A DNA stretch of 64,000 nt from a virus: IMG/VR virus record IMGVR_UViG_3300046804_000544, positions 68,917 to 132,916 of that record; one strand, 5' to 3'. A model generated the notes under the pieces. The model was not told the origin of the DNA, made no database searches, and saw only the letters and a list, made by a program, of their open reading frames with translations. Position numbers and translations under genes: made by a program. This document shows positions 34,520-53,400 of the stretch, piece after piece (position 1 is the first letter of the stretch; each line of letters starts with the position of its first letter).

Positions 34520-34545
34520 TTAACAATCCATCCAAATTTTAACGA

Positions 34546-34567: not shown

Positions 34568-34576
34568 GGGAATCGT

Positions 34577-34927
34577 GTGGAAAATTTTCTAGAAAAAGCT
34601 CTTGAAACAGCCAATTTGATGACAAATTTGGCAAATCAAAAACGTGCCCTTAAAGAAGAATTTGAACAAACTCAAATTTTTTTTTATAATGGCGGCACAT
34701 TTACTATTACAACTCAGTTAATTACATTTGTTAATTTTTTAATCAGTAAAGGTTATACCGGAAAAGTTCCGCTAATTGATAATAACGGTGTCCCTATACT
34801 AGTTGAAAACTTAGATTTCTTTTTAGATTCATTGCTTGATCTTTATTTTCAAAGTACAAACAAGTATTATCACAAATACGAAGCTATAAGACAAACTAAA
34901 GACATTAAAAATATTTTAGATCTATGA
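34577..34927 (+). CDS. Hypothetical protein, first gene of enzyme cluster
   Basis: GTG start with SD GGGGA; ATGA overlap with next gene. Confidence 0.7.
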   Translation: MENFLEKALETANLMTNLANQKRALKEEFEQTQIFFYNGGTFTITTQLITFVNFLISKGYTGKVPLIDNNGVPILVENLDFFLDSLLDLYFQSTNKYYHKYEAIRQTKDIKNILDL

Positions 34928-35748
34928 GCAAAGGCGTATTGCTATTTGCCTATAATAATTCTGATATAGATTATATTGAATTAGCAGTTATAAGTGCAAA
35001 TAGAATTAAACATCATCTAAACCTGCCAGTGTCTATAGTAGTTGACACTGTATCACTTGACGATTCTAGATTATCTCTATTTGATAAAATTATTGAATCA
35101 AATAGTAAGTCAAGTCAGAAAAAAAGATTTTATGATGGTCCAGATTATAAAATGTTAGAATGGAAAAATTCTACACGACCTAATGCTTATACATTAACAC
35201 CATACAAAGAAACATTAGTATTAGATGTTGATTATATAGTATGTTCTAATATTTTATTAAATTCTTTTAATTTAAACAAAGATTTTTTAATTTATAAACA
35301 ATCTTATGATATGGCTGAGTGGCGTAGTAAAGATGCCTTTAATTATATTAACAGTTATTCAACAGAATTTTTCTGGGCTACAGTATTCTATTTTAAGAAA
35401 ACTGCCTGGACAGAAATGTTTTTTAATTTAGTCACGTACATTAAAGATAATTGGGAATATTATAGATGTCTTTACCAGGTAGACATGCCTAATTATAGAA
35501 ATGACATTGCTTTTAGTATAGCATTAAACATACTTAACGGTTTTAGCACAGCTAATAATTTTGTTGGACATTTACCGTCAAAATTATATTATACTGCCGA
35601 TAGAGATTTTCTAATAAAAACAGATAATACATCTTGCACATTTTTGCTGCAAAAAGAAAATGCACTAGGCGAATATACAATAATGCGTACAGAAAATTTA
35701 GATGTACATGTTATGAATAAGTCTAGTATATTAAGGACTTGCAAATGA
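34924..35748 (+). CDS. Glycosyltransferase-like protein (GT-A fold, GT8-like)
   Basis: TPYKETLVLDVDY DxD motif; WATVFYFKK; RNDIAFSIA; LHVMNK-like C-terminus. Confidence 0.65.
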   Translation: MSKGVLLFAYNNSDIDYIELAVISANRIKHHLNLPVSIVVDTVSLDDSRLSLFDKIIESNSKSSQKKRFYDGPDYKMLEWKNSTRPNAYTLTPYKETLVLDVDYIVCSNILLNSFNLNKDFLIYKQSYDMAEWRSKDAFNYINSYSTEFFWATVFYFKKTAWTEMFFNLVTYIKDNWEYYRCLYQVDMPNYRNDIAFSIALNILNGFSTANNFVGHLPSKLYYTADRDFLIKTDNTSCTFLLQKENALGEYTIMRTENLDVHVMNKSSILRTCK

Positions 35749-36575
35749 ATAGAGGACATGTATTCTTAGCACAAAATAGTGACGTTAATTATGTTAGACA
35801 GGCCTATGCTCTTGCAACGTCAATTAAAAAATTTAATAAAAATAATCAAACTTGTTTGATTACTAATGACTCAGTTCCTTTAGAATATTTTAAATCGTTT
35901 GACCATATAGTTAAAATTCCCTGGGGTGATGCAGCACACCATAGTCAATGGAAAATTGAAAATCGTTGGAAAATAATTTATGCTACGCCTTTTAAATATA
36001 ATCTAGTATATGATACAGACATGTTGGTTTTATCTTCAACTGATCATTGGTGGGAATATCTTGAAGATAGAGATGTTGTTTTAACATCTCAAGTAAAAAC
36101 TTATCGAGGACTAGCAGCAACTAGTGACCATTATAGAAAGGCCTTTACAGCAAATCAGCTACCTAATAGTTATTTTGGTCTACATTACTTTAATAAAAAT
36201 CGTCAATCTTTTGAATTTTATAAATGGTTAGAAATTGTTGTAAAAAATTGGCGTGTGTTTTTTGAAAAATATACTCCTCAATCTACTCAAAGGTTTTGTA
36301 GTATTGATGTAGCTTCTGCTATTGTTATAAAATTAATGAACGCAGAATCTGACTTTATGATTGATAGTGATTTACCTTCATTTATACATATGAAATCTGG
36401 TATACAAAACTGGAAAGAATTTTCTGAAGATTGGCAAGAAGAAGTACCGGTAACATTTGATAACCAATGTCGTTTAAAAATAGCAAATTTTTTACAATCT
36501 GGCGTATTCCATTACACTGAAGATAGTTTTTTAACCGATGACTTTATTAATAAATTAGAGAATTACAATGTCTGA
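35745..36575 (+). CDS. Glycosyltransferase-like protein (paralogue of 34924)
   Basis: TPFKYNLVYDTDML DxD motif, FIHMK, FHY; ATG 35745 overlaps previous stop, SD AAGGA. Confidence 0.65.
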   Translation: MNRGHVFLAQNSDVNYVRQAYALATSIKKFNKNNQTCLITNDSVPLEYFKSFDHIVKIPWGDAAHHSQWKIENRWKIIYATPFKYNLVYDTDMLVLSSTDHWWEYLEDRDVVLTSQVKTYRGLAATSDHYRKAFTANQLPNSYFGLHYFNKNRQSFEFYKWLEIVVKNWRVFFEKYTPQSTQRFCSIDVASAIVIKLMNAESDFMIDSDLPSFIHMKSGIQNWKEFSEDWQEEVPVTFDNQCRLKIANFLQSGVFHYTEDSFLTDDFINKLENYNV

Positions 36576-37164
36576 AGAAATTGAATATCTTAGTCAAGAA
36601 GAAATTGATCGTGCTGAAGCCCTTCTAAAAGGATCAAAGAAGTATTATGTCTACTATACAGACGAAGGCGAAATTGTTGCTATTGTAAAAGAACCTAAAG
36701 ATTGGGCCAAAAACGTTTTAGAAGTTGACGAAGAAAATGTTTTAGGGTTTTTAAAAGGTGAAAAAACTACATACACCTACAAAATTAATAAACCTGCTCT
36801 TAAAGATAAAGCTATTGTAACAAGTAATCAGTTAAAAAAGTTTTCAAAATCGCCGTTAAGTGTTATTGACGGTAACAATGGAAATGAAGATTTAATTATT
36901 ACGCACAATTATGATCTTTGGAAAATAAAATTAAACAAAGATGATTTTAATGAACAAGACTTAGATAAAAAGTTAGACATATTTGTTGCAGTCAAAGACA
37001 ATCATAATTTTTTATTAAACACTTTAAGTTTTAAAATAAAAGATGCAATAAACGGAATAACATTTAAATTTAAATCACAGCACGAACAGAATTTTTATTC
37101 TGTTGAGTTATTAACTAAAAAAGTTTTTCCTTCCTACGGAACGCAATATGAGCCAAAAAGTTAA
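36568..37164 (+). CDS. Hypothetical protein
   Basis: Tiles the operon with overlaps at both ends. Confidence 0.65.
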   Translation: MSEEIEYLSQEEIDRAEALLKGSKKYYVYYTDEGEIVAIVKEPKDWAKNVLEVDEENVLGFLKGEKTTYTYKINKPALKDKAIVTSNQLKKFSKSPLSVIDGNNGNEDLIITHNYDLWKIKLNKDDFNEQDLDKKLDIFVAVKDNHNFLLNTLSFKIKDAINGITFKFKSQHEQNFYSVELLTKKVFPSYGTQYEPKS

Positions 37165-38074
37165 AATTATAGATCATGATGTTGTTTATCTAAGCTATGA
37201 TGAACCTAATGCTGAAAGAAATTATGCAGATTTGCTAAAGAAAATTCCGTGGGCAAAACGTGTTCATGGAGTTGACGGAAGTGATAGCGCACACAAAGCC
37301 TGTGCTAAATTAGCAACAACTGAACGAGTTACTATTATAGATGGTGATAATATTGTTGATGCAAACATTTTATCTCAAGAAATAGAATTCCAAGATCATG
37401 CTGATCTTTCAAAATGTGTACTCAGTTGGGGTGCTAAAAATATTATTAATGGATTAATTTACGGTAATGGTGGAATTAAATGTTGGCCTACACAGCTAAT
37501 ACTCGATATGCGTACACACGAAAATGCAGACCCTGCAAATGAAAAAACACAAGTAGATTTTTGTTGGGATATTAATTACATACAAATGAGCAAGTGTATG
37601 AGTGACGTACACAATAATGCTAGTCCTCAACAAGCGTGGCGTGCAGGATTTCGTGAAGGTGTAAAGATGAGTTTATTAGAAGGATCAAAGATAGATCCTA
37701 ATAAACTTTTTGACACACAAATACACTGGAAAAACTATCATAGACTCTGTACATGGTTAAATGTTGGCGCCGATGTTGAAAATGGTCATTGGGCTATTTA
37801 CGGTGCTAGACAAGGTTGCCATATGACAAACTTAACAGACTGGGACTTTACTGAAGTTAGAGATTTTAAATGGCTAAACAATTTCTGGGAAACTAAGGCA
37901 TCGGGATTAGATGAACAACAGTTAAAGTCTATGATAATATTCTATGGCGAAGAGCTTTGTCGTAAATTAAACATTCTTACAGGCCCAACATGTATGACAC
38001 CAGAACAGAGTAAATTTTTCAAAGCAGTTTACACTAATCCGCCTAGAATGAAAAGTAATTTGGTAATTGAATAA
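37148..38074 (+). CDS. Glycosyltransferase-like protein (GT-A/GT2-like)
   Basis: DVVYLSYDEPNA, RVHGVDG...AHKACA, IIDGD DxD motif, YGNGGIK, AWRAGFREGVK. Confidence 0.6.
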   Translation: MSQKVKIIDHDVVYLSYDEPNAERNYADLLKKIPWAKRVHGVDGSDSAHKACAKLATTERVTIIDGDNIVDANILSQEIEFQDHADLSKCVLSWGAKNIINGLIYGNGGIKCWPTQLILDMRTHENADPANEKTQVDFCWDINYIQMSKCMSDVHNNASPQQAWRAGFREGVKMSLLEGSKIDPNKLFDTQIHWKNYHRLCTWLNVGADVENGHWAIYGARQGCHMTNLTDWDFTEVRDFKWLNNFWETKASGLDEQQLKSMIIFYGEELCRKLNILTGPTCMTPEQSKFFKAVYTNPPRMKSNLVIE

Positions 38075-38748
38075 TGTACGATATAGTTTTTATCAGTTAT
38101 AACGAACCTAATGCGGATGATAATTGGAATAAGTTGATCACTAGGTTTCCTTTAGTTCGACGTGTACATGGAGTTAAAGGTATACATCAAGCTCATATTG
38201 CCGCTGCAAAATTATGTTTTACTAATATGTTTTGGGTAGTTGACGGTGATGCAGAAATTGTAGAATCTTTTGATTTTAGTTATCGTACTAAAATACAAGA
38301 TTATGTCTATGTATGGCGCAGCCGTAATCCTGTAAATGATTTAGAATACGGTAATGGCGGCGTTAAATTATTGCCTCGGTTAATGACTATCAATATGGAT
38401 GTATCTAAACCCGATATGACTACCAGTATTAGTGAAAAATTTAAACCTGTAATGCAAGTAAGTAATATTAATTGTTTTAACAGTGATCCTTTTAATACAT
38501 GGAAAAGTGCTTTTAGAGAGTGTTGCAAATTAAGCAGCAAAATTATTGATAGACAAAAATCTGATGAAACTAATGAAAGACTACGTACATGGTGTTCAAA
38601 AGGTTCAGAAAGACTCTATGGAGAATATGCAATTAAAGGTGCTCGAGCAGGTATGCAATATGGTATTGAAAATAAGGATAATGTTGAAGAGTTAAAAAAG
38701 ATCAACGATTTTGATTGGCTTACTCAAAAATTTAAGGAATCTTTATGA
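38074..38748 (+). CDS. Glycosyltransferase-like protein (paralogue of 37148)
   Basis: DIVFISYNEPNA, RVHGVKG...AHIAAA, VVDGD, YGNGGVK, TWKSAFRECCK. Confidence 0.6.
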   Translation: MYDIVFISYNEPNADDNWNKLITRFPLVRRVHGVKGIHQAHIAAAKLCFTNMFWVVDGDAEIVESFDFSYRTKIQDYVYVWRSRNPVNDLEYGNGGVKLLPRLMTINMDVSKPDMTTSISEKFKPVMQVSNINCFNSDPFNTWKSAFRECCKLSSKIIDRQKSDETNERLRTWCSKGSERLYGEYAIKGARAGMQYGIENKDNVEELKKINDFDWLTQKFKESL

Positions 38749-39671
38749 GTGAAAATACTACCGATAAAGTAGAATGGTTATATGGATTAGAAGAATATTT
38801 TTTATTTACTAACAAAGAACACTTTGCCGAACATATTCATGATTTTATATCATTAAACTATGTTGACGATCCTACTACAACCCTTAAAAAATTAATTTTA
38901 AAGTCACAAACGCTACCTGCTGATATTTTTAGTAAACATTTAAATTGTTATTTTAACAGCGGAAAAAAAGAATTTAATTTAGTAGAAATTGCAAGCACGC
39001 TTAAAGACGTCACTAACGACAAACTTTTAAATATTATTCATGCTTTTGCAAGAAATAATTTAGATATTAACCAACTTGGGGATGCATTTAGTAAAGGCCA
39101 AGTTCGAAGTAAAATTTGGTTGATTAAAGAATTATCTAATGTATCTACTAGATATAACAATGTAATGGTGCTTGCTGGTTGGTATGGACAATTAAAGTTG
39201 TTCTATGATAGGTTATTAACTTATCATAAAATGAGAATAGTTGATCTGGATCGTACAGCATGTGAAGCAAGTGATTATATTTTTAATTTAAGTAATTTAG
39301 AAAACTACAAAGTTAAAAGTGTATGTGCAGATATTAATAACCTAACTTGTTATAAAACTGGATACGAATGGGATGTTACTAATTTTAAAGAAGGTACAAG
39401 TTATAAAGAAAAATTTTTACCTGATTTAATCATTAATACCAGTGCCGAGCATATGACGGAAGAATGGTTTAATCAAATTAGATTTAAAGAATTTGAATCA
39501 AACCCTATAGTTGCCATTCAAAGTAACAATATGTTTAATTTACCTGAACATGTAAATTGTGTTCATAGCGTTAATCACATGAAGAAAAAGTTCCCTATGA
39601 AAGAAATATTATTTGAAGGAGAACTTCAACTTAAAGGATATAAGCGTGTAATGCTTATAGGAAGACCATGA
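38745..39671 (+). CDS. Class I SAM-dependent methyltransferase-like protein
   Basis: VMVLAGWYG glycine motif, acidic end of beta2 (IVDLD), ADIN, INTSAEHM. Confidence 0.55.
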   Translation: MSENTTDKVEWLYGLEEYFLFTNKEHFAEHIHDFISLNYVDDPTTTLKKLILKSQTLPADIFSKHLNCYFNSGKKEFNLVEIASTLKDVTNDKLLNIIHAFARNNLDINQLGDAFSKGQVRSKIWLIKELSNVSTRYNNVMVLAGWYGQLKLFYDRLLTYHKMRIVDLDRTACEASDYIFNLSNLENYKVKSVCADINNLTCYKTGYEWDVTNFKEGTSYKEKFLPDLIINTSAEHMTEEWFNQIRFKEFESNPIVAIQSNNMFNLPEHVNCVHSVNHMKKKFPMKEILFEGELQLKGYKRVMLIGRP

Positions 39672-39892
39672 TTGATATTGATTCTATGGAATTGAGACAA
39701 TTACAGATAGAAGCAGCTAAAGCTATGTCTGCATATGAAGCTACTAATAACTTCATTCATCAATTTAACAAACAGGCACATCATAACAGTCAAAACTGGT
39801 ATAAAGCAGTAATTAAACATTATGTTAGTGAATATGGCGATTTACCTAGTCTTACTGGCCCTGCAAAAGATATAAAGTTGGTAATGGAATAA
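39668..39892 (+). CDS. Small hypothetical protein (74 aa)
   Basis: ATGA and TAATG overlaps with both neighbours. Confidence 0.65.
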   Translation: MIDIDSMELRQLQIEAAKAMSAYEATNNFIHQFNKQAHHNSQNWYKAVIKHYVSEYGDLPSLTGPAKDIKLVME

Positions 39893-41061
39893 TGTACAAA
39901 TACGATGAAATTAAAACAGTGCATTTAGAAATTACAGATAACTGTAATGCTGCCTGTCCTATGTGTGCCCGCAATATTAATGGCGGACAAGAGAATCCTC
40001 AAGTGCCGGGTACAGAACTTTTTATAGATGATATTAAACGTATATTTGATCCTAATTTTATAAAACAATTAGACCGTATGTATATGTGTGGTAACTACGG
40101 TGACCCAATTGCCGCAAGAGATACATTGGAAACTTTTGCTTACTTTAGGCAACATAACTCAACAGCTATGTTAAGTATGCATACAAACGGCAGCGCCAAA
40201 AAACCAGAATGGTGGGCAGAGTTAGCACGTACGATAGGTCGTAAAGGATATGTGGTTTTTAGTCTAGATGGTTTAGAAGACACTAATCACCTTTATAGAC
40301 AAAATACTGTATGGTCAAAGATAATGGAAAACGCACAAGCCTTTATTGATGCAGGTGGCCGAGCACGTTGGGATTATATTGTATTTGCACATAACGAACA
40401 TCAAGTAGAAGAAGCTGAGCAGTTGGCGAAATCAATGGGATTTGAAAAATTTCAGTTTAAGAAAAGTGCTAGATTTTTTTCAAACGCTAGCGGCGTAACA
40501 AAAGAAATGCATCAGGCAGCAAATCGTAAAGGCATGGCTACTACGTTACTTCAAGCGCCAACTAATCCAAAGTATAGAAATGCAGCCTTAGAAGAATTAA
40601 GTAAAATTGCTAAATCAGAAGCACCTATTAAATTTTTACCTAGCAAACAGGAAGATTTAGAAGGTTATACCTTTCCACAAATATTTCACAAAGACCCTGC
40701 AAAGAAAAAACCTATGGAAAAATACTGGGATGAAGTTCCTATCAAATGTAAAGTAGCAGAAGAAAAGAGCCTTTATGTTTCTGCAGAAGGTATTGTACAG
40801 CCATGTTGCTGGACTGCTGGTCAAATGTACGTTTGGTACTGGACACCTAAAGGTGGACAGATATGGAACTTAATAGATGAAGTTGGCAAAGACAATCTTA
40901 ATGCTAAGTTAAACAGTTTAGAATCAATTGTTAATGGTCGTTTTATGCAAGATCTAGTTCCTAATAGTTGGATCAAATCAAGTTGCTCTGACGGCAAGCT
41001 AGCAGTATGTGCAAAAACATGCGGTACTAAGCATGATGCATTTGCGGAGCAATTTAAGTGA
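39892..41061 (+). CDS. Radical SAM protein with C-terminal twitch/SPASM-like domain
   Basis: CNAACPMC; C-terminal IKC...YVSAEGIVQPCCW...CAKTC. Confidence 0.9.
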   Translation: MYKYDEIKTVHLEITDNCNAACPMCARNINGGQENPQVPGTELFIDDIKRIFDPNFIKQLDRMYMCGNYGDPIAARDTLETFAYFRQHNSTAMLSMHTNGSAKKPEWWAELARTIGRKGYVVFSLDGLEDTNHLYRQNTVWSKIMENAQAFIDAGGRARWDYIVFAHNEHQVEEAEQLAKSMGFEKFQFKKSARFFSNASGVTKEMHQAANRKGMATTLLQAPTNPKYRNAALEELSKIAKSEAPIKFLPSKQEDLEGYTFPQIFHKDPAKKKPMEKYWDEVPIKCKVAEEKSLYVSAEGIVQPCCWTAGQMYVWYWTPKGGQIWNLIDEVGKDNLNAKLNSLESIVNGRFMQDLVPNSWIKSSCSDGKLAVCAKTCGTKHDAFAEQFK

Positions 41062-42044
41062 AACCAATAGCTATTGAATATGTTGATCCAAGAAGGTACG
41101 ATGCAGTATACATAGATTGGACCTTAGGTAATTTTTGTAATTTTAAATGTAGTTATTGCCCAGATAATTTACATGACAATTCTCATCCTATGGCAGATAT
41201 TGAAATTGTAAAAAATTTTGTTAAGAGGGTGTTTGAACATTATACAAAAAATTTAGATAAAAAATATTTTGTTTTTAATCTCATGGGCGGCGAGCCAACA
41301 TTATGGAAAAGCATAGAACCGTTTATCATATGGGTAAAGCAGTACAGTCAAGATTTAGGAATAGTAAGTTATATTGAAATTTTAACTAATGCTAGTAGAA
41401 CTTTACGTTGGTGGAATGACTATATTAAGTATTTTGATTTTGTAAAAATTACACATCACGCAGAATTTGCTGATCCTATACACACAGCATCAGTGGCAGA
41501 TTTAGCTATAGAAAATGGAATACATTCAACTGTGCAGGTTACAATGATACCATCTCTCTGGGATCAGTGCCTATCACATTTAGATCAAATTAAAAAAAGC
41601 AATTATAAGTTTCAAATAGATGTGAAACCTTTGCGTGTTAATTTTGGATCTACGTTATATCCTTACACTACAGAACAGTTTGATTTTTTTAAAAAACCTT
41701 TTAGAAAAAGTGATATTACTAAACCTTTATCTGGATCTGTTGGAATGAAAAGTAAATTTTTATTTTTAGATAAGTCCGAACAAGAAATTAGATATCAAGA
41801 CTTAATTACAAATAAACAAAACAGTTGGATAGGATGGAAATGTTGGGCAGGATTAGATATATTAACAATTAGATCAGATGGATCTTTAAGATTTGGTGGT
41901 GCATGTCTTATGTCGGATACTGGTTTTTTTGATAAAAAAATTACAGATGATAATATTGTTTTCAGAACAGATCCAATTATTTGCAATCAACAATGGTGTA
42001 GCTGCGGCCCTGATATGGAGACTAGAAAATTAAATGAAAACTGA
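41058..42044 (+). CDS. Radical SAM protein with C-terminal Cys cluster
   Basis: CNFKCSYC, GGEP; GWKCWAG...GAC...CNQQWCSC; GTG start with SD GGAG. Confidence 0.9.
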   Translation: MKPIAIEYVDPRRYDAVYIDWTLGNFCNFKCSYCPDNLHDNSHPMADIEIVKNFVKRVFEHYTKNLDKKYFVFNLMGGEPTLWKSIEPFIIWVKQYSQDLGIVSYIEILTNASRTLRWWNDYIKYFDFVKITHHAEFADPIHTASVADLAIENGIHSTVQVTMIPSLWDQCLSHLDQIKKSNYKFQIDVKPLRVNFGSTLYPYTTEQFDFFKKPFRKSDITKPLSGSVGMKSKFLFLDKSEQEIRYQDLITNKQNSWIGWKCWAGLDILTIRSDGSLRFGGACLMSDTGFFDKKITDDNIVFRTDPIICNQQWCSCGPDMETRKLNEN

Positions 42045-43197
42045 TACTATTTGTTTTGTTCCTTTTAGAGAATTGCATATTAATCCTTATGGAAAATATA
42101 GAAATTGTTGCATACAAAAGGAAGTAATGGGTAAGATTAAACCAAATTTAGAAAATCCTAACGAGTGGTTTAAAAAAAATAAACCAATGCAAGATCTTAG
42201 GAATGATCTTATAGTTGGTATAAAAAATAAAAATTGCGATAAGTGTTGGACATTAGAAGATAAAAACTTATCTTCTTACAGATTAAATTGGAATCAACAA
42301 TACAAAAATAAAAACAATATTGATTTAGAAAGTCGAATTGAAGTACTAGATTTGCGTCTAGGAAATAAATGTAATCTACAGTGCAGAATGTGCAATTCAA
42401 CTTGGAGCGACCAAATATCTAAACAGATAGAAGAATTAACTGCTCTTGGCGTAAAAAATTCTTATACTCAAATGCCTATAACAGGAGTTATTCAGCAGTC
42501 ATCTGATTTTATGAATGATTTATTTTATTTTGTAAAAAACACTCCAACCTTAAAAGAAATAAAATTAGCCGGAGGCGAGCCTTTTGTAATGGACGAAGTA
42601 GAAGAATTTTTAGCTAAATTAGTTGAAAATAAAATTACAAATTTAGAATTAAGTTTATTAACAAACGTTACTGTAGTAAAAGATAGAATAGTTGAAATTT
42701 TAGAAAAATTTTCAAGTACACATATACAATGTAGTATAGATGGTATAGGAGAATTGTTAGAGTATCAACGTTTTCCTAGTAAATGGTCAGTGATAGAAAG
42801 AAACTTTATTAAATTATATAACTCTTTGTTAACAGTTAATTTAACTCCGTGTTGGAGTAATTTAAACATTTTATCTGTAGCAGATTTTTTAGAATGGACT
42901 AACCAATTTCCAAAAAGTCATGTAGCGTATAACGAAGTTACAACTCCTACTTATTTAGATTGGAAATTAGTACCGTTGGCTGCTAGAAAAAATACAATTA
43001 ACAAATTATCTTTAATTACTATGCATTCTAAAGTACACAAAGATTATTCAAAATTTATCCAACAATTCTCTTCAGAAGCTAGAACTTTTACTGATGAAGA
43101 ATTAATCAAATATGCTGATGCAATTGAATCTTGGGACTTAATTTCTAAAATTAAATATAAAGATTTATATTCTTGGAACGAACAGATACTTAAATAA
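42034..43197 (+). CDS. Radical SAM protein with N-terminal twitch-like domain
   Basis: N-terminal C..PF...G.YRNCC...CDKC; CNLQCRMC; AGGEPF. Confidence 0.9.
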   Translation: MKTDTICFVPFRELHINPYGKYRNCCIQKEVMGKIKPNLENPNEWFKKNKPMQDLRNDLIVGIKNKNCDKCWTLEDKNLSSYRLNWNQQYKNKNNIDLESRIEVLDLRLGNKCNLQCRMCNSTWSDQISKQIEELTALGVKNSYTQMPITGVIQQSSDFMNDLFYFVKNTPTLKEIKLAGGEPFVMDEVEEFLAKLVENKITNLELSLLTNVTVVKDRIVEILEKFSSTHIQCSIDGIGELLEYQRFPSKWSVIERNFIKLYNSLLTVNLTPCWSNLNILSVADFLEWTNQFPKSHVAYNEVTTPTYLDWKLVPLAARKNTINKLSLITMHSKVHKDYSKFIQQFSSEARTFTDEELIKYADAIESWDLISKIKYKDLYSWNEQILK

Positions 43198-43200
43198 AAC

Positions 43201-44604: not shown

Positions 44605-44617
44605 GGAGCAACAATTT

Positions 44618-45628: not shown

Positions 45629-46836
45629 AAACAAAAACTTTTTGTGTAATGCCTTGGAATAGTATTGCTACTAATGCATCGGGTGTTTATAGAGTTTGTT
45701 GTAATAGTACCCCGGGAAAAAATACAATCAATAATGAAAATGGCGTTCCGATGAAAATTTTTCAATACACGCCAACAGAAATTTGGAATAGCTCTACTTA
45801 TACAAAAATAAGAGAACAGATGTTAGCAGGCGAACAACCTGAAATGTGTGAACGATGTTTTAAAGAAGAAGCTTCAGGTATCGATAGTGCTAGAATAAAT
45901 TGGAATAAACGTTGGTACAAAGAAGACCGAGAGTATGCTGTAGAAGAAACCCCCAATATTCAATATGTTGATTTAAGATTAGGAAATCTCTGTAATCTAA
46001 AGTGTAGAATGTGTAACCCTTATAGTAGTAATCAATGGGTAGAAGAATGGAATGCTGTAGTAGATAAAGCTGAATTAGTTCCAAATTTTCCAATTAGCAA
46101 TGAAGAAGCTACCAGATTGTCAAAATTAGATTGGCCAAAGAATGAAAAAACTTGGGATAGCTTAATAGAAATTGCAGACACAATTGAAGAAATATACCTA
46201 ACAGGCGGAGAGCCAACGTTAGCAATAGAGCAGTATAAGCTATTTGACCTTTTAATTGAAAAACAATTATCTAAAAAAATTAAATTAAAATACAATACAA
46301 ATTTAACTAATATTCCTAAAAAAATGATCGAATATTGGAATAATTTTAAACGTATACAAATAAATGCTAGTATTGATGCATTTAAAGATTTAAATCGTTA
46401 CATAAGGTATCCTACAGCTTGGTCTAGCGTTGAAAAAAATATGGATCAATTTTCTAATATGCAAAATGTAGAAGTGCAATTACATTGCACAGTTCAAACC
46501 TATAACATATTAAATCTACATGAATTATTTGAATGGATGAAAAAATACCCGACAGTTAAATTATATTTAAACATATTGAATCATCCTCGATCTATGAATA
46601 TACGTGTATTACCAGAAGAACTTAAAGAACTAGCAGAAAAAAGATTGCAGCCATATTTACATCTTCCAAAAGTCCAGCAAACAATAAAATACATGAATGA
46701 TAAAAACGAAAGTGAATACTTAAAAGAATTCTTTGATTATACAATTACATTAGATGAAATGCGTAATCAAGACTTTTTTAATCTAGTTCCAGAGTTTAGG
46801 AAATTTTTTATCTCAACGTACCACACAACTGAATAA
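45625..46836 (+). CDS. Radical SAM protein with N-terminal twitch-like domain
   Basis: FCVMPW...GVYRVCC...CERC; CNLKCRMC; TGGEPT; YIRYPTAW; ATG 45625 overlaps previous stop. Confidence 0.9.
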   Translation: MKTKTFCVMPWNSIATNASGVYRVCCNSTPGKNTINNENGVPMKIFQYTPTEIWNSSTYTKIREQMLAGEQPEMCERCFKEEASGIDSARINWNKRWYKEDREYAVEETPNIQYVDLRLGNLCNLKCRMCNPYSSNQWVEEWNAVVDKAELVPNFPISNEEATRLSKLDWPKNEKTWDSLIEIADTIEEIYLTGGEPTLAIEQYKLFDLLIEKQLSKKIKLKYNTNLTNIPKKMIEYWNNFKRIQINASIDAFKDLNRYIRYPTAWSSVEKNMDQFSNMQNVEVQLHCTVQTYNILNLHELFEWMKKYPTVKLYLNILNHPRSMNIRVLPEELKELAEKRLQPYLHLPKVQQTIKYMNDKNESEYLKEFFDYTITLDEMRNQDFFNLVPEFRKFFISTYHTTE

Positions 46837-46840
46837 TTTT

Positions 46841-48070
46841 ATGAAACATATTGTCTGTAGTAAAATGTGGACGGATATTAATCTTAATATACCTACTAAA
46901 GAAATCAAAAATTGTTGTAAGAGACAATCTACTAAGTTATCAGTAAACGAACTTAAATTTTTAGGAAAAGACAGTTTTACAAAAAATCAAATGATTGTTG
47001 ACGATAAAAAATTTATGGTTGACAATAATCAACTACCTGGAGCATGTTATGGTTGTAAAATGACATGGCCTAATTCTCTTTGGAAAGTTTGGAATGTATG
47101 GAAAGATAAAGACTGGACAGCAGACCAATTGGAAAATCTTAAAAGTCAAGATCATGTCCATCAAATTGAAATTATGTTAGGAATTACCTGTAATCAGTCC
47201 TGTATGTATTGTACAGAGTTTGTTAGTAGTATGTGGGCGGACATAAAAGGTATTCCAATTACAACTGATACGGAATGGGAAGATCAAGCATTAGCAAATT
47301 TATACGAATACATCGAATCTGAAAGATATAATGATAAAAATTATATAATGTATAATTTTTTAGGTGGAGAACCATTTTTAGAATTGAGAATTTTTGAAGT
47401 AGTAGAAAAATTAATTGCAATTCATAGGTTTAAATCTATTCCTAATAAAAAAATTATTATACACATGACTACTAATTTAAACATCAAGAGTAAAACTCTT
47501 GACCGTTATTTAGAAATAGTAGAAAAAAATCTAGATATAGAATGGGGTATAAGTGCTAGCCTTGATTCTATTGGCCGGCAAGGTGAAGAAATAAGAGACG
47601 GATTAATTTTTTCTAGATTTGAAGAAAATTTAGAAAAGATTTATGCTTCTAATAAATTCCGTCATGTCTCTATATTACCGTCAGTTAGTGCATTAAGTAT
47701 TCCAAATAAAGCTGATTTAATTAATTGGTTTTTAAATCTAACTAAAAAGTATAGAAATTTATCCAATTTTGGTCATACTTTTAATATTGGACAAAATATA
47801 GTTACATGGCCCGATGCAATGCATCCGGGGATATTGACTGACAATTATAAAACAGAAATAGATAAGTGCATTCAAATAATAGAAACATTAGATAGAAGCA
47901 ACGCCGATACAAAAAAATATTTAGATCATCTAAACAATTTAAAACAGCTAATTGGAACAAAACGCCAACCAGAATATTTAAATAATGCCAAAGAATGGTA
48001 TATAAATCAAGGTAAGTTAAAAAATAAAAATTACTTTGATATTTTTCCATTCTTGAATGAAATATTATAA
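46841..48070 (+). CDS. Radical SAM protein with N-terminal twitch-like domain (divergent)
   Basis: VCSKMW...KNCC...CYGC; CNQSCMYC; LGGEPF. Confidence 0.88.
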   Translation: MKHIVCSKMWTDINLNIPTKEIKNCCKRQSTKLSVNELKFLGKDSFTKNQMIVDDKKFMVDNNQLPGACYGCKMTWPNSLWKVWNVWKDKDWTADQLENLKSQDHVHQIEIMLGITCNQSCMYCTEFVSSMWADIKGIPITTDTEWEDQALANLYEYIESERYNDKNYIMYNFLGGEPFLELRIFEVVEKLIAIHRFKSIPNKKIIIHMTTNLNIKSKTLDRYLEIVEKNLDIEWGISASLDSIGRQGEEIRDGLIFSRFEENLEKIYASNKFRHVSILPSVSALSIPNKADLINWFLNLTKKYRNLSNFGHTFNIGQNIVTWPDAMHPGILTDNYKTEIDKCIQIIETLDRSNADTKKYLDHLNNLKQLIGTKRQPEYLNNAKEWYINQGKLKNKNYFDIFPFLNEIL

Positions 48071-49467
48071 TGAATAATTTGTCTATTAATTTTGTTACGC
48101 CAAAAGATCAAAGAAGAGAAAAGTTATTATTTGTTTTTTGGAATGATTATTTTTGTAAAAAACAAAAATATTCTTACGATTTTTCCTATGCTAATGACCT
48201 AATGCATATGACTCAGATGATAGCAAACAGTATGCTATATCATAATTATGATAGAATATTGTGCTATAACTTAGAAGAAGCATTAGAATTGGCGGCTGCT
48301 TCAAATTTTAAAAATGTTGTAGTACATAGTCCTGGATCTATTATAAACAAAAACCATAATAATTTTGTGCTAGATTACATTAAAAATAAAGATTATTTTA
48401 TTGCAGGGCATATTTTAGACGGACGCCCTAAAAACAAATACCTACATCTTCACGAGCAGTGTTTTGTAGTAAATTTAGATCATTTTAATAATTTTGATCA
48501 TAAACTTGATTTTACCTGTAATCAAGAAAAAACATTTCAAGATTATTATAGAAGTACAGAAAATTTTCACGATGATTATACACCTTTATGGGTTAAAGGA
48601 TTGAATACAACACTAACAACAAAAAATTATGACTGGTCAGCGTCTTGGTTAGATTATGGATTAAAAACAAATACACTGTATATGTTTATTGAAGGCATTA
48701 GGGGAAATAAATTTCATATGTATCCTGAAACTCCTAAACATAGAGAAACGTGGTATGGAAGTATTAACGAAGAAAATCAACTAAGCAGAATACTAGATTC
48801 TGCATGTAAAATTGACACGCAGCAACACATTTTTAATAACGAAAATTTTTCAAAAAGTTCTGCTTACACAGTTAAAGACAATATTGATACTCTAATTGTT
48901 CCAGCCAGCGGATTTTTTAGTGTCCACGCATTTAAACACTTTAAACCTAAAAAAATAATTTACTATGATATTGATACTAAAACTTTAAATTTAAGAAAAA
49001 TTATAAATGATCATTGGAATGCAATCACTCCTATAAGGGATATATTTGTAGATGGTATTAATCCGTTTCAAGACATTGAAATACCTCAGATACAGCTTAT
49101 TGATAACGACTGGATTAAATCTCAAGACGAAGCAGAAGTTGTTTGGAAGGAATTTCAACTTGTTGAAAAAGAATACCATTGTATTGATATTATACACAAC
49201 TATGATCAATTATTATCAATTGTGCCCGATAGTAATACGTTTATATGGTTAAACAGCATTTATACATATTCGATAAACATTTGGAACCATAGACCAAGTA
49301 AAATTTTTGAATCTTATTATAACTTTGTATATGGGTTAAAAAAGAAACAATCTAAGATTTGGGTCGATGTGAAAGAACCAACAGGTCAATACAGATGTTT
49401 TGAGGTACATGGTTATGTTCCAGATGCTGTTATGATGGGCTATGCTAACTACACTAGGTTTTTATAA
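48070..49467 (+). CDS. Two-domain hypothetical enzyme; C-terminal half Rossmann/SAM-binding-like
   Basis: TLIVPASG...IIYYDID...CIDII...FIWLNSIYTY; similar pattern in the N-terminal part of 50003. Confidence 0.4.
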   Translation: MNNLSINFVTPKDQRREKLLFVFWNDYFCKKQKYSYDFSYANDLMHMTQMIANSMLYHNYDRILCYNLEEALELAAASNFKNVVVHSPGSIINKNHNNFVLDYIKNKDYFIAGHILDGRPKNKYLHLHEQCFVVNLDHFNNFDHKLDFTCNQEKTFQDYYRSTENFHDDYTPLWVKGLNTTLTTKNYDWSASWLDYGLKTNTLYMFIEGIRGNKFHMYPETPKHRETWYGSINEENQLSRILDSACKIDTQQHIFNNENFSKSSAYTVKDNIDTLIVPASGFFSVHAFKHFKPKKIIYYDIDTKTLNLRKIINDHWNAITPIRDIFVDGINPFQDIEIPQIQLIDNDWIKSQDEAEVVWKEFQLVEKEYHCIDIIHNYDQLLSIVPDSNTFIWLNSIYTYSINIWNHRPSKIFESYYNFVYGLKKKQSKIWVDVKEPTGQYRCFEVHGYVPDAVMMGYANYTRFL

Positions 49468-50006
49468 TGATAGTTGCAGGAAATAAAAATTACGGGATTG
49501 CTAAGGAAATTTATAAATTGTTTCCAGAAGCAATTTTTGCCAGCAGGACTACAGGATTTGATTTAACTAACAGTAAAGATCAATCTAGATTTGCTGAATT
49601 AGTCCTTGAACATGATGTGTTTATAAATTGTAGTGCTTTATGGAAATTTAATCAAACAGTGTTATTAGATATTGTTTATAAAAAATGTGTTGAGCATAAA
49701 CACTATCCTTATATTATTTGCATAGGATCAACTACTGATAGAGTTAAAAAAGGTGGTGCATGGTTGTACAACGCAGAAAAAAAAGCCTTAAGGGATTATT
49801 GCAATACGTTAGGATTTAACGGAGTATGGGGTAAAGCTCCAAAGATAACCTATATAAGTTTTGGAAGTTTGAGCAATGTACAAGATAAACATCCTGATAG
49901 GACCTGCTTACCTATTGATAAAACAGCTATATACATTAAGTGGTTAATCGACCAACCATCAGAAATCTGCATAAACGAAATAAGTATTGATCCTGTACAA
50001 CTATGA
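49467..50006 (+). CDS. Short-chain dehydrogenase/reductase (compact)
   Basis: AGNKNYGIA nucleotide-binding loop, FINCSA, catalytic Ser (IGST) and YNAEK (YxxxK). Confidence 0.75.
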   Translation: MIVAGNKNYGIAKEIYKLFPEAIFASRTTGFDLTNSKDQSRFAELVLEHDVFINCSALWKFNQTVLLDIVYKKCVEHKHYPYIICIGSTTDRVKKGGAWLYNAEKKALRDYCNTLGFNGVWGKAPKITYISFGSLSNVQDKHPDRTCLPIDKTAIYIKWLIDQPSEICINEISIDPVQL

Positions 50007-51532
50007 ATATTGGTATTATATTATCTAATCATGAAAATGATCGTGTTAACAAATTAAGACTTTTTACATTTAATGCTATAAAAGCAGCACCATCTCAAAA
50101 TAATTATACTATAGCAAGTGATGTTCCTTTAGATTTTACCTTAGAATTTAAAAATGATATTTGTATTACTAATGCAAATAAATTTGTTAAAATTATAGAC
50201 AATAGTTTAGAAAACTCTAATTTAGAAAACGAAGATTTAAAGGTAAGTGTAGCTAGTAGTCAAGAAGTTAAAACTTTAACGAACGAAATTAAATCAACTT
50301 ATAAAAATTATAAAGATACTGATTTTGAAAGCTGGTTAAGTAACCATATATCTCCAACTAATCATTATTGGGCATATAATTCTGAAAGTTTAAATTTTGT
50401 TTTGCCTCCAGATACGGATTGCATTATTACAGTAAGTTCAGGGCTATTACCTTTAAATTTAATTAGCCAATTAGATAAACCATGCACTGTTACATTAGTT
50501 GATATTAATAATAATTGTTTGGAGTTTCAAAGATATTTAATTAACAATATAGATAGACTTAAATCTATAAAATCATATAAAGAATTAATTAAAAACTTTT
50601 CTATTGAATATAGAGTTGACCCTATTGGTAACTTAACAGATATTGATAAAATTGAATCAATTATAGAAATAATAAATCATAAAAAACGCATTATAAAACA
50701 ATGTTCTATAAATTATGTCATTGGTGATCTACGAGAGCCTAATGAAATAATTGTACAAAATTTAAGATCATCTAAAAATCCATTAGTTTATTTTAGCAAT
50801 ATTTTTTCTTATGTTCCAACGCTATTTGGAAACAATTCTGAAAAAGATTTTGTTCTATTTTTAAACATGTTGCTAGGTGCAAACCTAAATGTAAAGTGGC
50901 ACGGCGATACACCTAATCGAATATGTTCTAGCAATTTAATGAAACAGTCACAAGATGAATATCATTGGAAAGTTAACATAGATTTACCTTATAAAGATTT
51001 TTTAGAAGAAGTTTCTATCTTAGAATCAAAAAATTTATTTGTAAAACATAGAACTAAAGACGGACACAAAGGTGTATATTTCAATCATGGGTGGTCTAGT
51101 TTTTGCATACATGGATTAGCTTATGACATGACCCAAGGTCCTGAGCAATACGGTTATACAGAAGAAACTGCACCATATGATTATACGCCTGAAGCACTAG
51201 AGTATTGTCCTAAATTAGTTAACTGGTTTAAAGAAAATGCATTTAGAAAAAAATATCACAGAGTTAGAATAATGAAATTAGATCCAGGCGGCATAGTAGG
51301 ATTACACAATGATAATCCAAATTCTAAAGCGTCTGCTACTAATATGGCTATTAATAATCCTGTTGGTTGCGAAATGCATTTTCTAAATAGAAACTATCAG
51401 TATCTAGGTCTAGTTCCTTGGACAGACGGTGATGTTTATAAAATACAAATTGGGTTAAATCATTATGTTGTAAATAAGAGCAACGAAAATAGATATCATA
51501 TGATAATACATGGCACTGGCGGAACACTATGA
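50003..51532 (+). CDS. Fusion: N-terminal SAM-fold-like domain plus C-terminal Asp/Asn beta-hydroxylase-like Fe/2OG oxygenase
   Basis: RVRIMKLDPGGIVGLHND (HxD)...NHYVVN.S.E.RYHMIIHG is the AspH-like DSBH pattern. Confidence 0.7.
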   Translation: MNIGIILSNHENDRVNKLRLFTFNAIKAAPSQNNYTIASDVPLDFTLEFKNDICITNANKFVKIIDNSLENSNLENEDLKVSVASSQEVKTLTNEIKSTYKNYKDTDFESWLSNHISPTNHYWAYNSESLNFVLPPDTDCIITVSSGLLPLNLISQLDKPCTVTLVDINNNCLEFQRYLINNIDRLKSIKSYKELIKNFSIEYRVDPIGNLTDIDKIESIIEIINHKKRIIKQCSINYVIGDLREPNEIIVQNLRSSKNPLVYFSNIFSYVPTLFGNNSEKDFVLFLNMLLGANLNVKWHGDTPNRICSSNLMKQSQDEYHWKVNIDLPYKDFLEEVSILESKNLFVKHRTKDGHKGVYFNHGWSSFCIHGLAYDMTQGPEQYGYTEETAPYDYTPEALEYCPKLVNWFKENAFRKKYHRVRIMKLDPGGIVGLHNDNPNSKASATNMAINNPVGCEMHFLNRNYQYLGLVPWTDGDVYKIQIGLNHYVVNKSNENRYHMIIHGTGGTL

Positions 51533-52209
51533 ATAGCAATTATGAAAAATTTATAACAGATGATATACTTTCAAAATTTGGTGTAGTCCAATCAGTAGAT
51601 TTATATCAATTGGCTTACATAGTTAGTAAATTGGAAGAAGGTCCAATTGTTGAAATTGGAACATGGTTAGGAAAATCAGCATATACCATGTCTCTTTATA
51701 AAAATAAAAATAGTGTATTGCATCTAGTTGATCCTTTTGAATCAAGTTTTGGATCTAGTAACAATTCTTACCCACAGGCTGATTTATTAGTTTATAAAAA
51801 AAACAATTCTACTACACCCGATGATGTTGTTCTTAAATATAGACAAATAATTTTTGATACAAAAGATAATTTACCAGTAGTCAAAGATGTACTAAAAGAT
51901 TTTTTATCAACAACAGTATTTCACAAAATGAGAAGTGAAAATTTTAAATTAACATTTGAACCTAAGTTTGCTTTTATTGATGGAGGACATACTTATCAAG
52001 AATGTTACGACGATATTAAAAAATTTGTTCGGTACGATAATATTTTAATTGCAGTACACGATTATGATCAATTAGATGTAAAATTAGCATGCCACAATAT
52101 TGCCAACGAGCATGATAGAAAATTACTTTTTTCTCACCAAATGTGTTATATCTTAGATAAGAATTGTCAATATGAAAGTCTTATAAGAGAAATATTATCT
52201 ACTTTATAA
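51529..52209 (+). CDS. Class I SAM-dependent methyltransferase (Methyltransf_24-like)
   Basis: IVEIGTWLGKS, LHLVDPF, FIDGGHTY, VHDY. Confidence 0.85.
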   Translation: MNSNYEKFITDDILSKFGVVQSVDLYQLAYIVSKLEEGPIVEIGTWLGKSAYTMSLYKNKNSVLHLVDPFESSFGSSNNSYPQADLLVYKKNNSTTPDDVVLKYRQIIFDTKDNLPVVKDVLKDFLSTTVFHKMRSENFKLTFEPKFAFIDGGHTYQECYDDIKKFVRYDNILIAVHDYDQLDVKLACHNIANEHDRKLLFSHQMCYILDKNCQYESLIREILSTL

Positions 52210-52216
52210 AGTCGTA

Positions 52217-52222
52217 TAAGTA
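52217..52222 (+). promoter_or_regulatory. Late-like promoter motif (TAAGTA) 5 nt before ATG
   Basis: Same N5 spacing to ATG as at 9811; no SD upstream of 52228. Confidence 0.45.
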
Positions 52223-52227
52223 AAAGT

Positions 52228-53400
52228 ATGACAAAAGATTTAAGTTGGAGTGCCTACGATTTTACCAAAATACCGTACAGTGATATTGTACGTGTAGGTC
52301 AGCGTACCATGCTGTATAAAGATCTTTTTACAGTAAGTTGGCTGCTAGGTCGTTACTGTAACTATCGTTGTAGTTACTGTTGGCCTTATGCTCGCAGTGA
52401 CAGTAAAGACCATAGACCAACTGAGTTATGCTTAAAGACAATTGACGAAATTAAACGTCAAGCTCGTGAGCGTAATTTTAACAGTTTTCATTTTAGTCTA
52501 AGCGGTGGCGAACCTACATTCCACCCGGGCTATATTGATATATTAAACTACCTTAATGATGATGTAGATAATACAAACTATACTAGTGTACACATGACTA
52601 GTAACATGAGTCGTCCATTAAAGTGGTTTGAAGAAAAATATTGTCCTGCTGTTAGCAAGTTTCATCGTGCTAGTATTACTGCTAGCCTACATACAGAGCA
52701 TGTAGATACACCAGAAAAAATGCAAGAGTTTGCAGACAAATTAATCCTTTGTCAAGAATATGATGTACAAGTAACTATTAACATGGTTATGGTACCAGAA
52801 TGGTTTGAGCGTGACTTTGATAATGCGTTATTCTTTCACGATCAAGGAATTAATGTAACCTTAAAGCCCCAAAGCGATCCGACTGCTAGTCGTGTAGTTG
52901 ACGGATATACTCCAGAAATGTTAAAGCGTTTGCATAACGGTATGCCTCAAAGAGCATTTACTGAGACAAAAGCCGCACTCGCCAAAAAGGTTAAAAGACC
53001 CGAACCTCGATTCTTTAAAACACCAGATCCTATCTATCAAGAAGCGCAGAGTAAAATACCACAGCACTTTCAAGTAGAATTTATAGACAAAGAAAAGAAA
53101 ATATGGTATATGGATCAAGCTGAACGATTCAACGCTTTTAACTTTAACAAATTCAAAGGTTGGGAATGTTCTAGCGGATACAGGGGTATTATTATACGTG
53201 AACCAGACGGTAGCATTAAACGTAGCTATAGCTGTCACGATGCTCCTATAGGTAACATTGAAACAGGATTCAAACTGTTTGACGGACCAAAGCCTTGCAT
53301 TAGCGAAAGTTGTGTTAGCTCAGCTGACAGCAAAATACCCAAAAGAGCGCCCGGAACAGAGTTGCCTCTGTGGCCGGGCGATAAAACCTTTATTCGCTAA
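52228..53400 (+). CDS. Radical SAM protein (paralogue of 41058)
   Basis: CNYRCSYC, SGGEPT; GWECSSG...SYSC...CISESC. Confidence 0.9.
   Translation: MTKDLSWSAYDFTKIPYSDIVRVGQRTMLYKDLFTVSWLLGRYCNYRCSYCWPYARSDSKDHRPTELCLKTIDEIKRQARERNFNSFHFSLSGGEPTFHPGYIDILNYLNDDVDNTNYTSVHMTSNMSRPLKWFEEKYCPAVSKFHRASITASLHTEHVDTPEKMQEFADKLILCQEYDVQVTINMVMVPEWFERDFDNALFFHDQGINVTLKPQSDPTASRVVDGYTPEMLKRLHNGMPQRAFTETKAALAKKVKRPEPRFFKTPDPIYQEAQSKIPQHFQVEFIDKEKKIWYMDQAERFNAFNFNKFKGWECSSGYRGIIIREPDGSIKRSYSCHDAPIGNIETGFKLFDGPKPCISESCVSSADSKIPKRAPGTELPLWPGDKTFIR

Follow-up and report, generated by a model that had tools for sequence, protein, structure and literature searches.

Aquatic T4-type myophages carry, in their structural region, a variable island termed the host recognition cluster (HRC), described in pelagimyophages and cyanomyophages (Zaragoza-Solas et al. 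2020, PMC7029224). This hypervariable, fibre-linked island holds fibres, glycosyltransferases (GTs; GT8 is the commonest type), an Asp/Asn beta-hydroxylase, and cassettes of radical S-adenosylmethionine (SAM) genes that differ among close genomes; it is known by annotation only, and O-chain modification has been favoured as its role. Many radical SAM genes have also been reported in a marine T4-like genome (PMC5332604). In chloroviruses, the capsid glycan receives two rhamnoses and a methyl group from the three domains of A064R (PMC9614988), and virion glycosylation in mycobacteriophages was described by Freeman et al. 2023, as cited in PMC12619734. Here, we analyzed a 64,000-nucleotide stretch of DNA (the window) from an uncultured giant freshwater phage (IMG/VR record IMGVR_UViG_3300046804_000544, positions 68,917 to 132,916), in which 20 plus-strand genes, named g01 to g19 with g07b, occupy 34577-53400 directly after the fibre genes. 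As predicted from its genes, this cluster is a new form of virus-encoded glycosylation machinery, and its products probably constitute a sugar or glycan pathway.

The cluster is likened to the HRC, which is defined by a position between VrlC and gp14, by its gene content and as a variable island within the structural region. The lineages also differ, the present phage belonging to the Rak2/Atu_ph07-like jumbo group and the pelagimyophages to another. A conserved scaffold, an N-terminal-twitch (N-twitch) radical SAM family, domain fusions, and a bacterial counterpart, all found here, do not appear in the HRC paper (PMC7029224). With the virion glycosylation systems of PBCV-1 (A064R/A061L), mimivirus, and mycobacteriophages, the cluster shares soluble virus-encoded GT-A enzymes with a DxD motif, and the GT-GT-methyltransferase domain order of A064R is also that of g05-g06-g07 and of their fused forms. 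In those systems, the glycans are found on virions, whereas in the present phage group a virion glycan is a tentative prediction from the genes, and seven radical SAM genes dominate the cluster. The term "radical SAM" does not occur in the giant-virus glycan review (PMC9614988).

The window covers the final 64 kb of a viral contig of 132,916 bp, whose CheckV completeness is 38%. The baseplate wedge protein was 34-36% identical to its counterparts in Atu_ph07, Serratia phage BF, and Rak2-like jumbo myoviruses. The 20 genes, comprising 19 open reading frames (ORFs) of at least 80 aa and one 74-aa ORF (g07b), mostly overlap by 1-17 nt, and none of the 20 proteins contains a hydrophobic or membrane segment. 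An assembly from an independent study of a drinking-water metagenome tiled positions 34000-53822 at >99% identity; the gene arrangement is therefore no chimera or assembly artefact. Together with the ORF calls, this assembly bears out the first description of the locus in the initial annotation, namely 20 co-oriented, mostly overlapping genes right after the fibre genes. Near-identical DNA was present in freshwater, aquaculture, sediment, and estuary runs from ~10 studies, and none of these runs was recorded as RNA; joints obtained by laying reads on the sequence were disregarded because their short sides were ~20 nt. No match to the cluster was found when 50,697 phage records were searched by Megablast.

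We examined the seven radical SAM genes (g08, g09, g10, g11, g13, g14, and g19; Table 1), all of which carry the CX3CX2C motif. The PF04055 cut-off (29.5 bits) was passed by g08, g10, g11, g13, and g19; g09 scored 27.9 bits, or 30.1 bits with adjoining in-frame hits, and g14 stayed below at 18.8-20.6 bits. Seven of the eight radical SAM matches in the whole 133-kb contig lie inside these 19 kb. Furthermore, g10, g11, and g13 matched NF033640 (N_Twi_rSAM) over their full length above its cut-off of 170 bits, and g14 fell below it. In the N-twitch alignment of viral and bacterial relatives, C11, C29, C93, and C96 are invariant and lie N-terminal to C149/C153/C156. Residues 5-86 of the profile aligned to residues 182-256 of BtrN, in its C-terminal twitch domain (E 2e-4), and Pfam SPASM matches were found at residues 11-97 and 23-94 of N-twitch proteins. 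Because the N-terminal segment aligns to the C-terminal twitch of BtrN, the auxiliary-cluster domain is permuted to the N-terminus: in the NF033640 members it precedes the core, whereas it follows the core in BtrN, anSME, and SkfB. The core itself resembled SkfB, CteB, BlsE, and viperins. The likeness to BtrN lies in the twitch-type auxiliary cluster and that to BlsE and viperins in the core, in each case partial and at superfamily level only (E 1e-6 to 1e-4), with the domain order permuted. A literature search for N-terminal twitch, NF033640, and N_Twi_rSAM found no paper and no characterised member. BtrN oxidises a sugar, BlsE and viperins act on nucleoside sugars or nucleotides, and a partner of the short-chain dehydrogenase/reductase (SDR) type is typical of sugar redox chemistry.

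The paralogs g05 and g06 are 32% identical. For g06, an AlphaFold model based on 33 homologs reached a predicted local distance difference test (pLDDT) score of 90.6 and has a Rossmann-like GT-A fold with the DxD placed after beta-4. In Foldseek, the model matched WrtF (E 6e-5) as well as PBCV-1 A64R (A64R-D1), ppGalNAc-transferases, RmlT, and SunS/ThuS; in VIA, it gave Z scores of 10-11.7 to B4GALNT1, a Leptospira GT, WrtF, and SpsA; and in BFVD, it matched many viral GTs, among them a transferase of mycobacteriophage Che8. The model suggests transferase chemistry for g05 and g06. At the sequence level, neither protein matched PF00535 (Glycos_transf_2, cut-off 23.3 bits), the g05 ortholog of the complete relative G003 scoring 19.8 bits, and their profile (A1) had no believable match among PDB sequences. 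With the g02/g03 profile (A2), 19 glycogenin chains were matched (E 0.014-0.07) in the nucleotide-binding half, residues 5-110, and the DxD motif is invariant. The Pfam GT8 family (PF01501) did not match g02 or g03, and a Pfam scan of all 32 A2 members gave no consistent family, one member matching Mannosyl_trans3 at E 0.003. PHROGs and NCBIfam yielded nothing useful for g01-g07, g12, g15, and g16, and hhalign detected no relationship between A2 and A1, between the g07 profile (A3) and g18, or between the g12 profile (A6) and the C-terminus of g17. The small protein g07b has a mean column identity of 73%, is invariant at many positions, and is translationally coupled to g08; its profile (A4) had no believable match among PDB sequences and no family, and a complex prediction of g08 with g07b returned no verdict (score 0.00).

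Among the rear genes, g17 matched PF05118 at 28.7 bits over residues 375-502 (cut-off 22.6). The model of g12 had a pLDDT of 66.6, and its top Foldseek matches were mostly 2-oxoglutarate (2OG) dioxygenases, although weak (E of at least 0.015, TM score ~0.3); profile A6 had no believable match among PDB sequences. BLASTP between g15 and g17 was not significant. The g16 protein matched SDR chains weakly (E 0.026-0.14) and had no match in Pfam. In the initial annotation, the enzymes had been counted as seven radical SAM proteins with CxxxCxxC, four GT-like proteins with DxD, two Fe/2OG oxygenases, two methyltransferases, and an SDR with YxxxK. The radical SAM count was confirmed by both motif and PF04055 matches. 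The other counts also held, some of them by weak matches: g05 and g06 have the GT-A fold with D-G-D and the g02/g03 pair is weakly GT8-like only; g17 as an oxygenase and g18 as a methyltransferase exceed their family cut-offs (PF05118 and PF13578), with g12 resting on weak matches and HxD...H and g07 on a weak match; and g16 has the invariant Ser/Tyr-x3-Lys with weak SDR matches.

A search of IMG/VR with g11 retrieved 148 relatives, placing the island in at least 148 viral contigs. From these 148, 80 loci were kept, whose g11 proteins are 71-95% identical to the query, and they include complete genomes of 399.8 kb (G003) and 381.9 kb. The conserved gene order was (f3-f4)-g01-g02-g03-(g04)-g05-g06-g07-g07b-g08 ... 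g11 ... (g12, g16) ... g19, followed on the opposite strand by ThyX and its neighbours. Within this order, g01-g08, g11, g16, and g19 form a conserved scaffold with variable genes interspersed. The stretch from g08 to g19 contains 3-10 radical SAM genes in 8.2-17.1 kb (39 loci holding both genes), and the minimum set is g08-g11-g12-g16-g19. The core enzymes are better conserved than the fibres, with mean column identities of 80% for g19 (A9) and 72% for g08 (A8). In the window, the lowest GC content (0.28-0.29) was observed at 46000-52000, coinciding with the genes rarest in relatives (g14, g15, g17, and g18), and GC returned to 0.39 over the conserved g19 region. The g19 family comprises 4771 clusters at E <= 1e-10, the best 120 of which are all at least 82% identical. 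Protein clusters of the N-twitch family and its g08/g19 partners number in the thousands across freshwater, marine, and engineered waters, and these enzymes occur also in candidate-phyla bacteria. These results agree with the earlier proposal of a single pathway of linked rather than scattered genes, the scaffold being syntenic in dozens of relatives. As a separate observation, Vibrio phage K566 (L093, OZ196521.1, 255 kb), obtained from mixed seawater and oyster material, has an array of five or more radical SAM genes at 156-179 kb. Some of them are distant relatives of the N-twitch enzymes (24% identity); NAMPT and PagP-like genes lie nearby, and no fibre linkage is visible.

Natural gene fusions were sought by mapping our own profiles on the best 150 of the 1680 clusters that the g05/g06 profile retrieved among 50%-identity representatives. 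We found fusions of g05-g06-g07 (A1-A1-A3; e.g., P0121, P0122, and P0130) and of g06-g07 (A1-A3), P0198 being among the fused forms. In P0187 and P0236, a g06-like domain is fused to an N-twitch radical SAM domain, and Pfam confirmed the radical SAM domain of P0187. Three long proteins (P0128, P0156, and P0194; 1524-2164 aa) end in a full g06-like domain, and ahead of it as many as seven segments partially match that half of the profile in which the DxD lies. Such proteins may consist of transferase-like half-domains repeated in tandem; a Pfam scan of P0128 and P0194 gave no family.

A search of genome contigs with g11 returned three loci only, two of which are short contigs of metagenome-assembled genomes (MAGs) that may be phage DNA. 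A Parcubacteria MAG contig of 1.27 Mb carries orthologs of g08 (47%), g11 (55%), and g19 (57%), together with six further N-twitch paralogs and a short SDR. Its neighbours are GT4, GT28, a radical SAM-GT2 fusion, a nucleotidyltransferase, a CDP-glycerol glycerophosphotransferase, an aminotransferase, an AsnB-like amidotransferase, and YrdC and Kae1-type genes, and the block is flanked by enolase and phosphoglycerate mutase. Judged by this gene content, the block is a chromosomal glycopolymer-type cluster. The 538-aa radical SAM-GT2 fusion (L085:1003-2619, CAWFCE010000002.1) lies beside a TsaD/Kae1-like carbamoyltransferase-type gene, and the YrdC gene is separate. Furthermore, in the cultured Ralstonia phage RsoM2USA, ORFs 354-347 correspond, with the order kept, to g01, g02, g03, g05, one N-twitch radical SAM gene, g06, and g07, and they lie downstream of the giant ORF361 and fibre-like genes. 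Mass spectrometry, in which only the ten most abundant bands were identified, showed the products of ORFs 356, 359, and 361 to be virion proteins (PMC8504454).

No nucleotide-sugar activation gene was found in the cluster, as had been noted earlier for nucleotide-sugar synthesis genes beyond a possible SDR, and no NTP-transferases (sugar nucleotidyltransferases) were found in complete relatives. NAD-epimerase/dehydratases are encoded outside the cluster in the complete relatives G003 (six) and G004 (one). The lack of nucleotidyltransferases and the presence of epimerase/dehydratases in complete relatives fit the use and modification of host nucleotide sugars. The six genes of G003 lie at C1:257700-260100, 291200-291900, and 388600-389200, three of them clustered, and are far from the radical SAM island. 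A sugar-building and sugar-editing pathway is well supported by the scaffold synteny, the fusions, the Parcubacteria counterpart, and the RsoM2USA form. The multi-step sugar-related tailoring pathway proposed in the initial annotation was likewise borne out by the synteny, the GT/methyltransferase/radical SAM fusions, and the bacterial glycopolymer-type cluster.

The observations above cover gene families and folds, synteny and fusions, and the bacterial context; from them we infer the sugar substrate, the individual reactions, and the acceptor. The 20 genes would encode one cytoplasmic pathway of soluble enzymes that transfers and then remodels sugars, with a virion acceptor preferred; we give this complete scheme a little less than an even chance. 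In it, g05 and g06, and probably the GT8-like g02 and g03 too, would transfer nucleotide sugars to an acceptor, the donors coming from the host or from phage epimerase/dehydratases encoded elsewhere. The product would be methylated by g07, as by domain 3 of chlorovirus A064R. The radical SAM trio g08, g11, and g19, with the SDR g16 and usually the oxygenase g12, would perform radical chemistry on the sugar or nucleotide sugar; oxidation, dehydration, epimerisation, and C-C or C-methyl chemistry are possible reactions, and they would give an invariant unusual core. The variable cassettes g09, g10, g13, g14, g15, g17, and g18 would add lineage-specific decorations. By analogy with giant-virus and mycobacteriophage virion glycosylation, the preferred acceptor would be a fibre or baseplate virion protein encoded just upstream; a virion protein in this role is a tentative choice.

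Table 1. Features of the cluster in the window (all on the plus strand).
Feature	Coordinates	Length	Assignment and features	Scores
Palindromic hairpin	34549..34567		stem of 8-9 bp; the g01 start follows after 10 nt; one arm holds TAACTA; ends just 5' of the ribosome-binding site	
g01	34577..34927	116 aa	No family found; conserved scaffold gene; ortholog in RsoM2USA	
g02	34924..35748	274 aa	Weakly GT8-like; DxD motif, invariant D101/D103	
g03	35739..36575	278 aa	Distant g02 paralog; NCBIfam Npun_R2821/2 family	g02 E 2e-4; NCBIfam E 8e-4
g04	36568..37164	198 aa	No family found; in only some relatives	
g05	37148..38074	308 aa	GT-A-fold transferase-like; g06 paralog; Atlas cluster named GT2-like	
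g06	38074..38748	224 aa	GT-A-fold transferase-like; invariant D57-G-D59	
g07	38745..39671	308 aa	Class I methyltransferase-like (weak)	Profile A3 vs MJ0882 E 0.18
g07b	39668..39892	74 aa	Strongly conserved; start and stop overlap neighbouring genes	
g08	39892..41061		Radical SAM, C-terminal Cys-rich region; conserved core	PF04055 38.5 bits
g09	41058..42044		Radical SAM; g19 paralog; variable	
g10	42034..43197		N-terminal-twitch radical SAM; variable	NF033640 247.5 bits; PF04055 34.6 bits
g11	43201..44604		N-terminal-twitch radical SAM; conserved core	NF033640 429.8 bits; PF04055 41.4 bits
g12	44597..45628	343 aa	Probable Fe(II)/2OG dioxygenase; invariant H147-x-D149...H292	
g13	45625..46836		N-terminal-twitch radical SAM; ATG 45625 overlaps the g12 stop and is preferred to TTG 45577 of the ORF lister	NF033640 381.5 bits; PF04055 45.2 bits
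g14	46841..48070		Divergent N-terminal-twitch radical SAM; AT-rich, GC 0.29	NF033640 146.1 bits
g15	48070..49467	465 aa	Homologous to the N-terminal part of relatives' hydroxylase-fusion proteins	E 1e-11
g16	49467..50006	179 aa	Short SDR-like reductase; conserved; invariant G5, S88, Y101, K105	
g17	50003..51532	509 aa	N-terminal region without known family and C-terminal Asp/Asn beta-hydroxylase-type 2OG oxygenase	
g18	51529..52209		SAM-dependent methyltransferase	PF13578 (Methyltransf_24) 31.6 bits, cut-off 26.3
g19	52228..53400		Radical SAM; most conserved core enzyme	PF04055 52.9 bits

Upstream of the cluster lie baseplate hub and wedge genes, a 4795-aa ORF, and genes for four fibre-type proteins. 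The 4795-aa ORF is a single frame (13778-28165) between a baseplate wedge gene and the fibre genes, and its counterpart in RsoM2USA is ORF361. Downstream, on the minus strand, are ThyX, a DUF2201 metallopeptidase/VWA protein, a MoxR-type ATPase, a flap exonuclease, and an eighth radical SAM gene. With fibre and baseplate genes on one side and ThyX and nuclease genes on the other, the cluster is located at the meeting point of the structural and replication modules. The DUF2201 gene adjoins that of the MoxR-type AAA ATPase (55568-57913, minus strand); of the genes mapped on relatives, it recurs 3' of the cluster together with ThyX and the two small genes between them. The eighth radical SAM gene (61059-61910, minus strand) has a weak PF04055 match (22 bits) and belongs to the replication-side module, outside the cluster.

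Several observations weigh against a sugar pathway directed at the virion. One is the early-type, sigma70-type promoter at the cluster head in many relatives. When 22 distinct heads were compared, TTGACW-N16-18-TAnnnT was found in 10, against 0.5% of random 80-nt windows, and TAAATA was found in 4. A palindrome of variable sequence (8-17 bp arms) occupies the same position in most relatives (L003, L004, L029, L030, L034, L038, L041, and others), and in the 10 heads with a sigma70-type promoter the two overlap, the stem lying between or over the -35 and -10 boxes. The palindrome resembles the operator of a dimeric regulator, or else an RNA stem at the 5' end, and the heads of the relatives hint at early transcription by the host polymerase. 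In the window, the four structural operons have TAAATA 20-30 nt 5' of their start codons and the cluster head does not. A scan for consensus promoters and terminators inside the cluster gave no excess over shuffled sequence. The initial annotation had read a TAACTA motif with a hairpin at the head and TAAGTA before the last gene as late-type signals. The letters are present, but the late-type label is unsupported and the timing argument built on it fails: TAACTA is an arm of the palindrome, nearly half of the relatives' heads are sigma70-type, and TAAGTA before g19 is not conserved in relatives. The PBCV-1 capsid-glycan GTs are also expressed early, though they modify the capsid (PMC9614988); the promoter type therefore leaves the target undecided.

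The linkage to fibre genes, on which the initial annotation had also relied, is seen here, in ~19 fetched loci, and in RsoM2USA, but not in the complete genome G003. There, the cluster follows sheath, tube, terminase, gp32-like, and UvsX-like genes (read from N-termini), which counts against a virion target, and no match to the fibre and baseplate proteins of the window was found in the 20 kb upstream. Other points concern the enzymes themselves. Peptides, and not sugars, are often the substrates of SPASM/twitch radical SAM enzymes and of Asp/Asn hydroxylases. Cytidylyltransferases and nucleotidyltransferases (IspD and MobA) share the GT-A superfold and have nearly equal Z scores to g06. In addition, only motifs and weak matches support the assignments of g02/g03, g07, g12, and g16.

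Among the alternative targets, host surface polysaccharide is the best placed, although unlikely. The pathway would remodel an O-antigen, capsule, or other glycopolymer during infection via the host export machinery; acting at the cytoplasmic face on lipid-linked intermediates, it would block superinfection or adsorption of progeny to debris. O-chain modification is favoured for similar fibre-linked islands (PMC7029224), the bacterial radical SAM core lies in a cell-envelope-type glycopolymer cluster, and the early-type promoters in the relatives are consistent with this target. Peripheral GTs require no membrane segment, and we have withdrawn the absence of membrane proteins as an argument against host-surface modification, since GTs working at the cytoplasmic face need none. 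However, genes for a flippase, polymerase, ligase, initiating phosphoglycosyltransferase, or any membrane protein are absent from the cluster; it is not self-sufficient for export, but could feed the host machinery. Moreover, the adjacency to fibre genes is kept in very distant phages, and exclusion does not obviously need an invariant core with variable decorations.

The peptide maturases that neighbour the radical SAM cores, and the Asp/Asn hydroxylase, suggest a second target. The radical SAM enzymes, hydroxylases, and methyltransferases would modify a protein or peptide directly, in the manner of RiPPs (peptides made on ribosomes and modified after translation), with glycosylation as one step, compare glycocins and mycofactocin; the substrate could be a fibre protein or the small conserved g07b or g01. 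Many peptide maturases, among them SkfB, CteB, PapB, and anSME, neighbour the radical SAM cores in NCBIfam and PDB; g17 belongs to the Asp/Asn beta-hydroxylase family; the nearest folds of g12 include prolyl and ribosomal hydroxylases; the fold neighbours of g06 include the peptide S-glycosyltransferases SunS/ThuS and ppGalNAc-transferases; and the 74-aa g07b, invariant at many positions, is coupled to g08. However, g07b does not co-vary as a precursor would: it remains constant across complements of 3 to 10 radical SAM genes. RRE/PqqD-like domains, a leader peptidase, and a Cys-rich core peptide were not found, the N-terminal twitch is placed unlike that of known RiPP maturases, and both the N-twitch radical SAM/GT-A fusion and the bacterial glycopolymer context point to sugars. 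We consider a RiPP-like pathway improbable.

Sets of radical SAM, SDR, oxygenase, and methyltransferase genes are typical of sugar-derived natural products (BtrN and BlsE), and the Parcubacteria cluster has an aminotransferase, an AsnB-like amidotransferase, and carbamoyl-transfer genes of the YrdC and Kae1 type. On these grounds, the cluster might make a diffusible small molecule (aminoglycoside-like, nucleoside-like, or a cofactor) and no decoration at all. This is quite improbable: four transferase-fold genes occur with no exporter, resistance, or scaffold-forming gene, the placement in the structural region is conserved, and, to our knowledge, it is without precedent that a lytic phage devotes 19 kb to a secreted metabolite. 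Least probable is hypermodification of phage DNA against restriction, with a base glycosylated and then tailored: phage GTs, 2OG oxygenases, and radical SAM enzymes are known from DNA hypermodification, as stated in the initial annotation (see also Pyle et al. 2024, as cited in PMC12619734), relatives have early-type promoters, and the cluster adjoins the replication/nucleotide module with ThyX downstream, but no pyrimidine hydroxymethylase of the ThyA family (PF00303) was found in the 38% complete contig of the window (G000) or in complete G003, the closest complete relative with the same cluster, PF01702 (TGT/DpdA) was absent from G000, G003, G004, and RsoM2USA, the cluster showed no kinase, aGPT-Pplase, or DNA-binding domain, and the bacterial counterpart is of the glycopolymer type. 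The preference stated at the outset for decoration of the virion or host surface over DNA modification thereby stands to the extent that the DNA reading is weakened.

For this lineage, the scaffold-plus-cassette architecture, the GT-GT-methyltransferase and GT-radical SAM fusions, and the Parcubacteria counterpart are added by the present analysis, as are the promoter/operator finding at the cluster head and the exception to fibre linkage. The fusions, together with the one-radical-SAM form in the culturable phage RsoM2USA, make the question of sugar transfer and remodelling directly testable. It is conceivable, if rather doubtful, that a very large group of aquatic jumbo phages decorates its tail-fibre or baseplate apparatus with a hypervariable glycan whose core is made by three conserved radical SAM enzymes and diversified by exchangeable cassettes of radical SAM, oxygenase, and methyltransferase genes. 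If this is true, the virion would carry a hypervariable glycan for host recognition or for evading the defences of hosts or grazers, and the N-terminal-twitch radical SAM family would receive its first function. If N-twitch enzymes do edit sugars, they would represent a large untapped set of radical carbohydrate chemistry and would add a further layer of phage-host recognition or camouflage.

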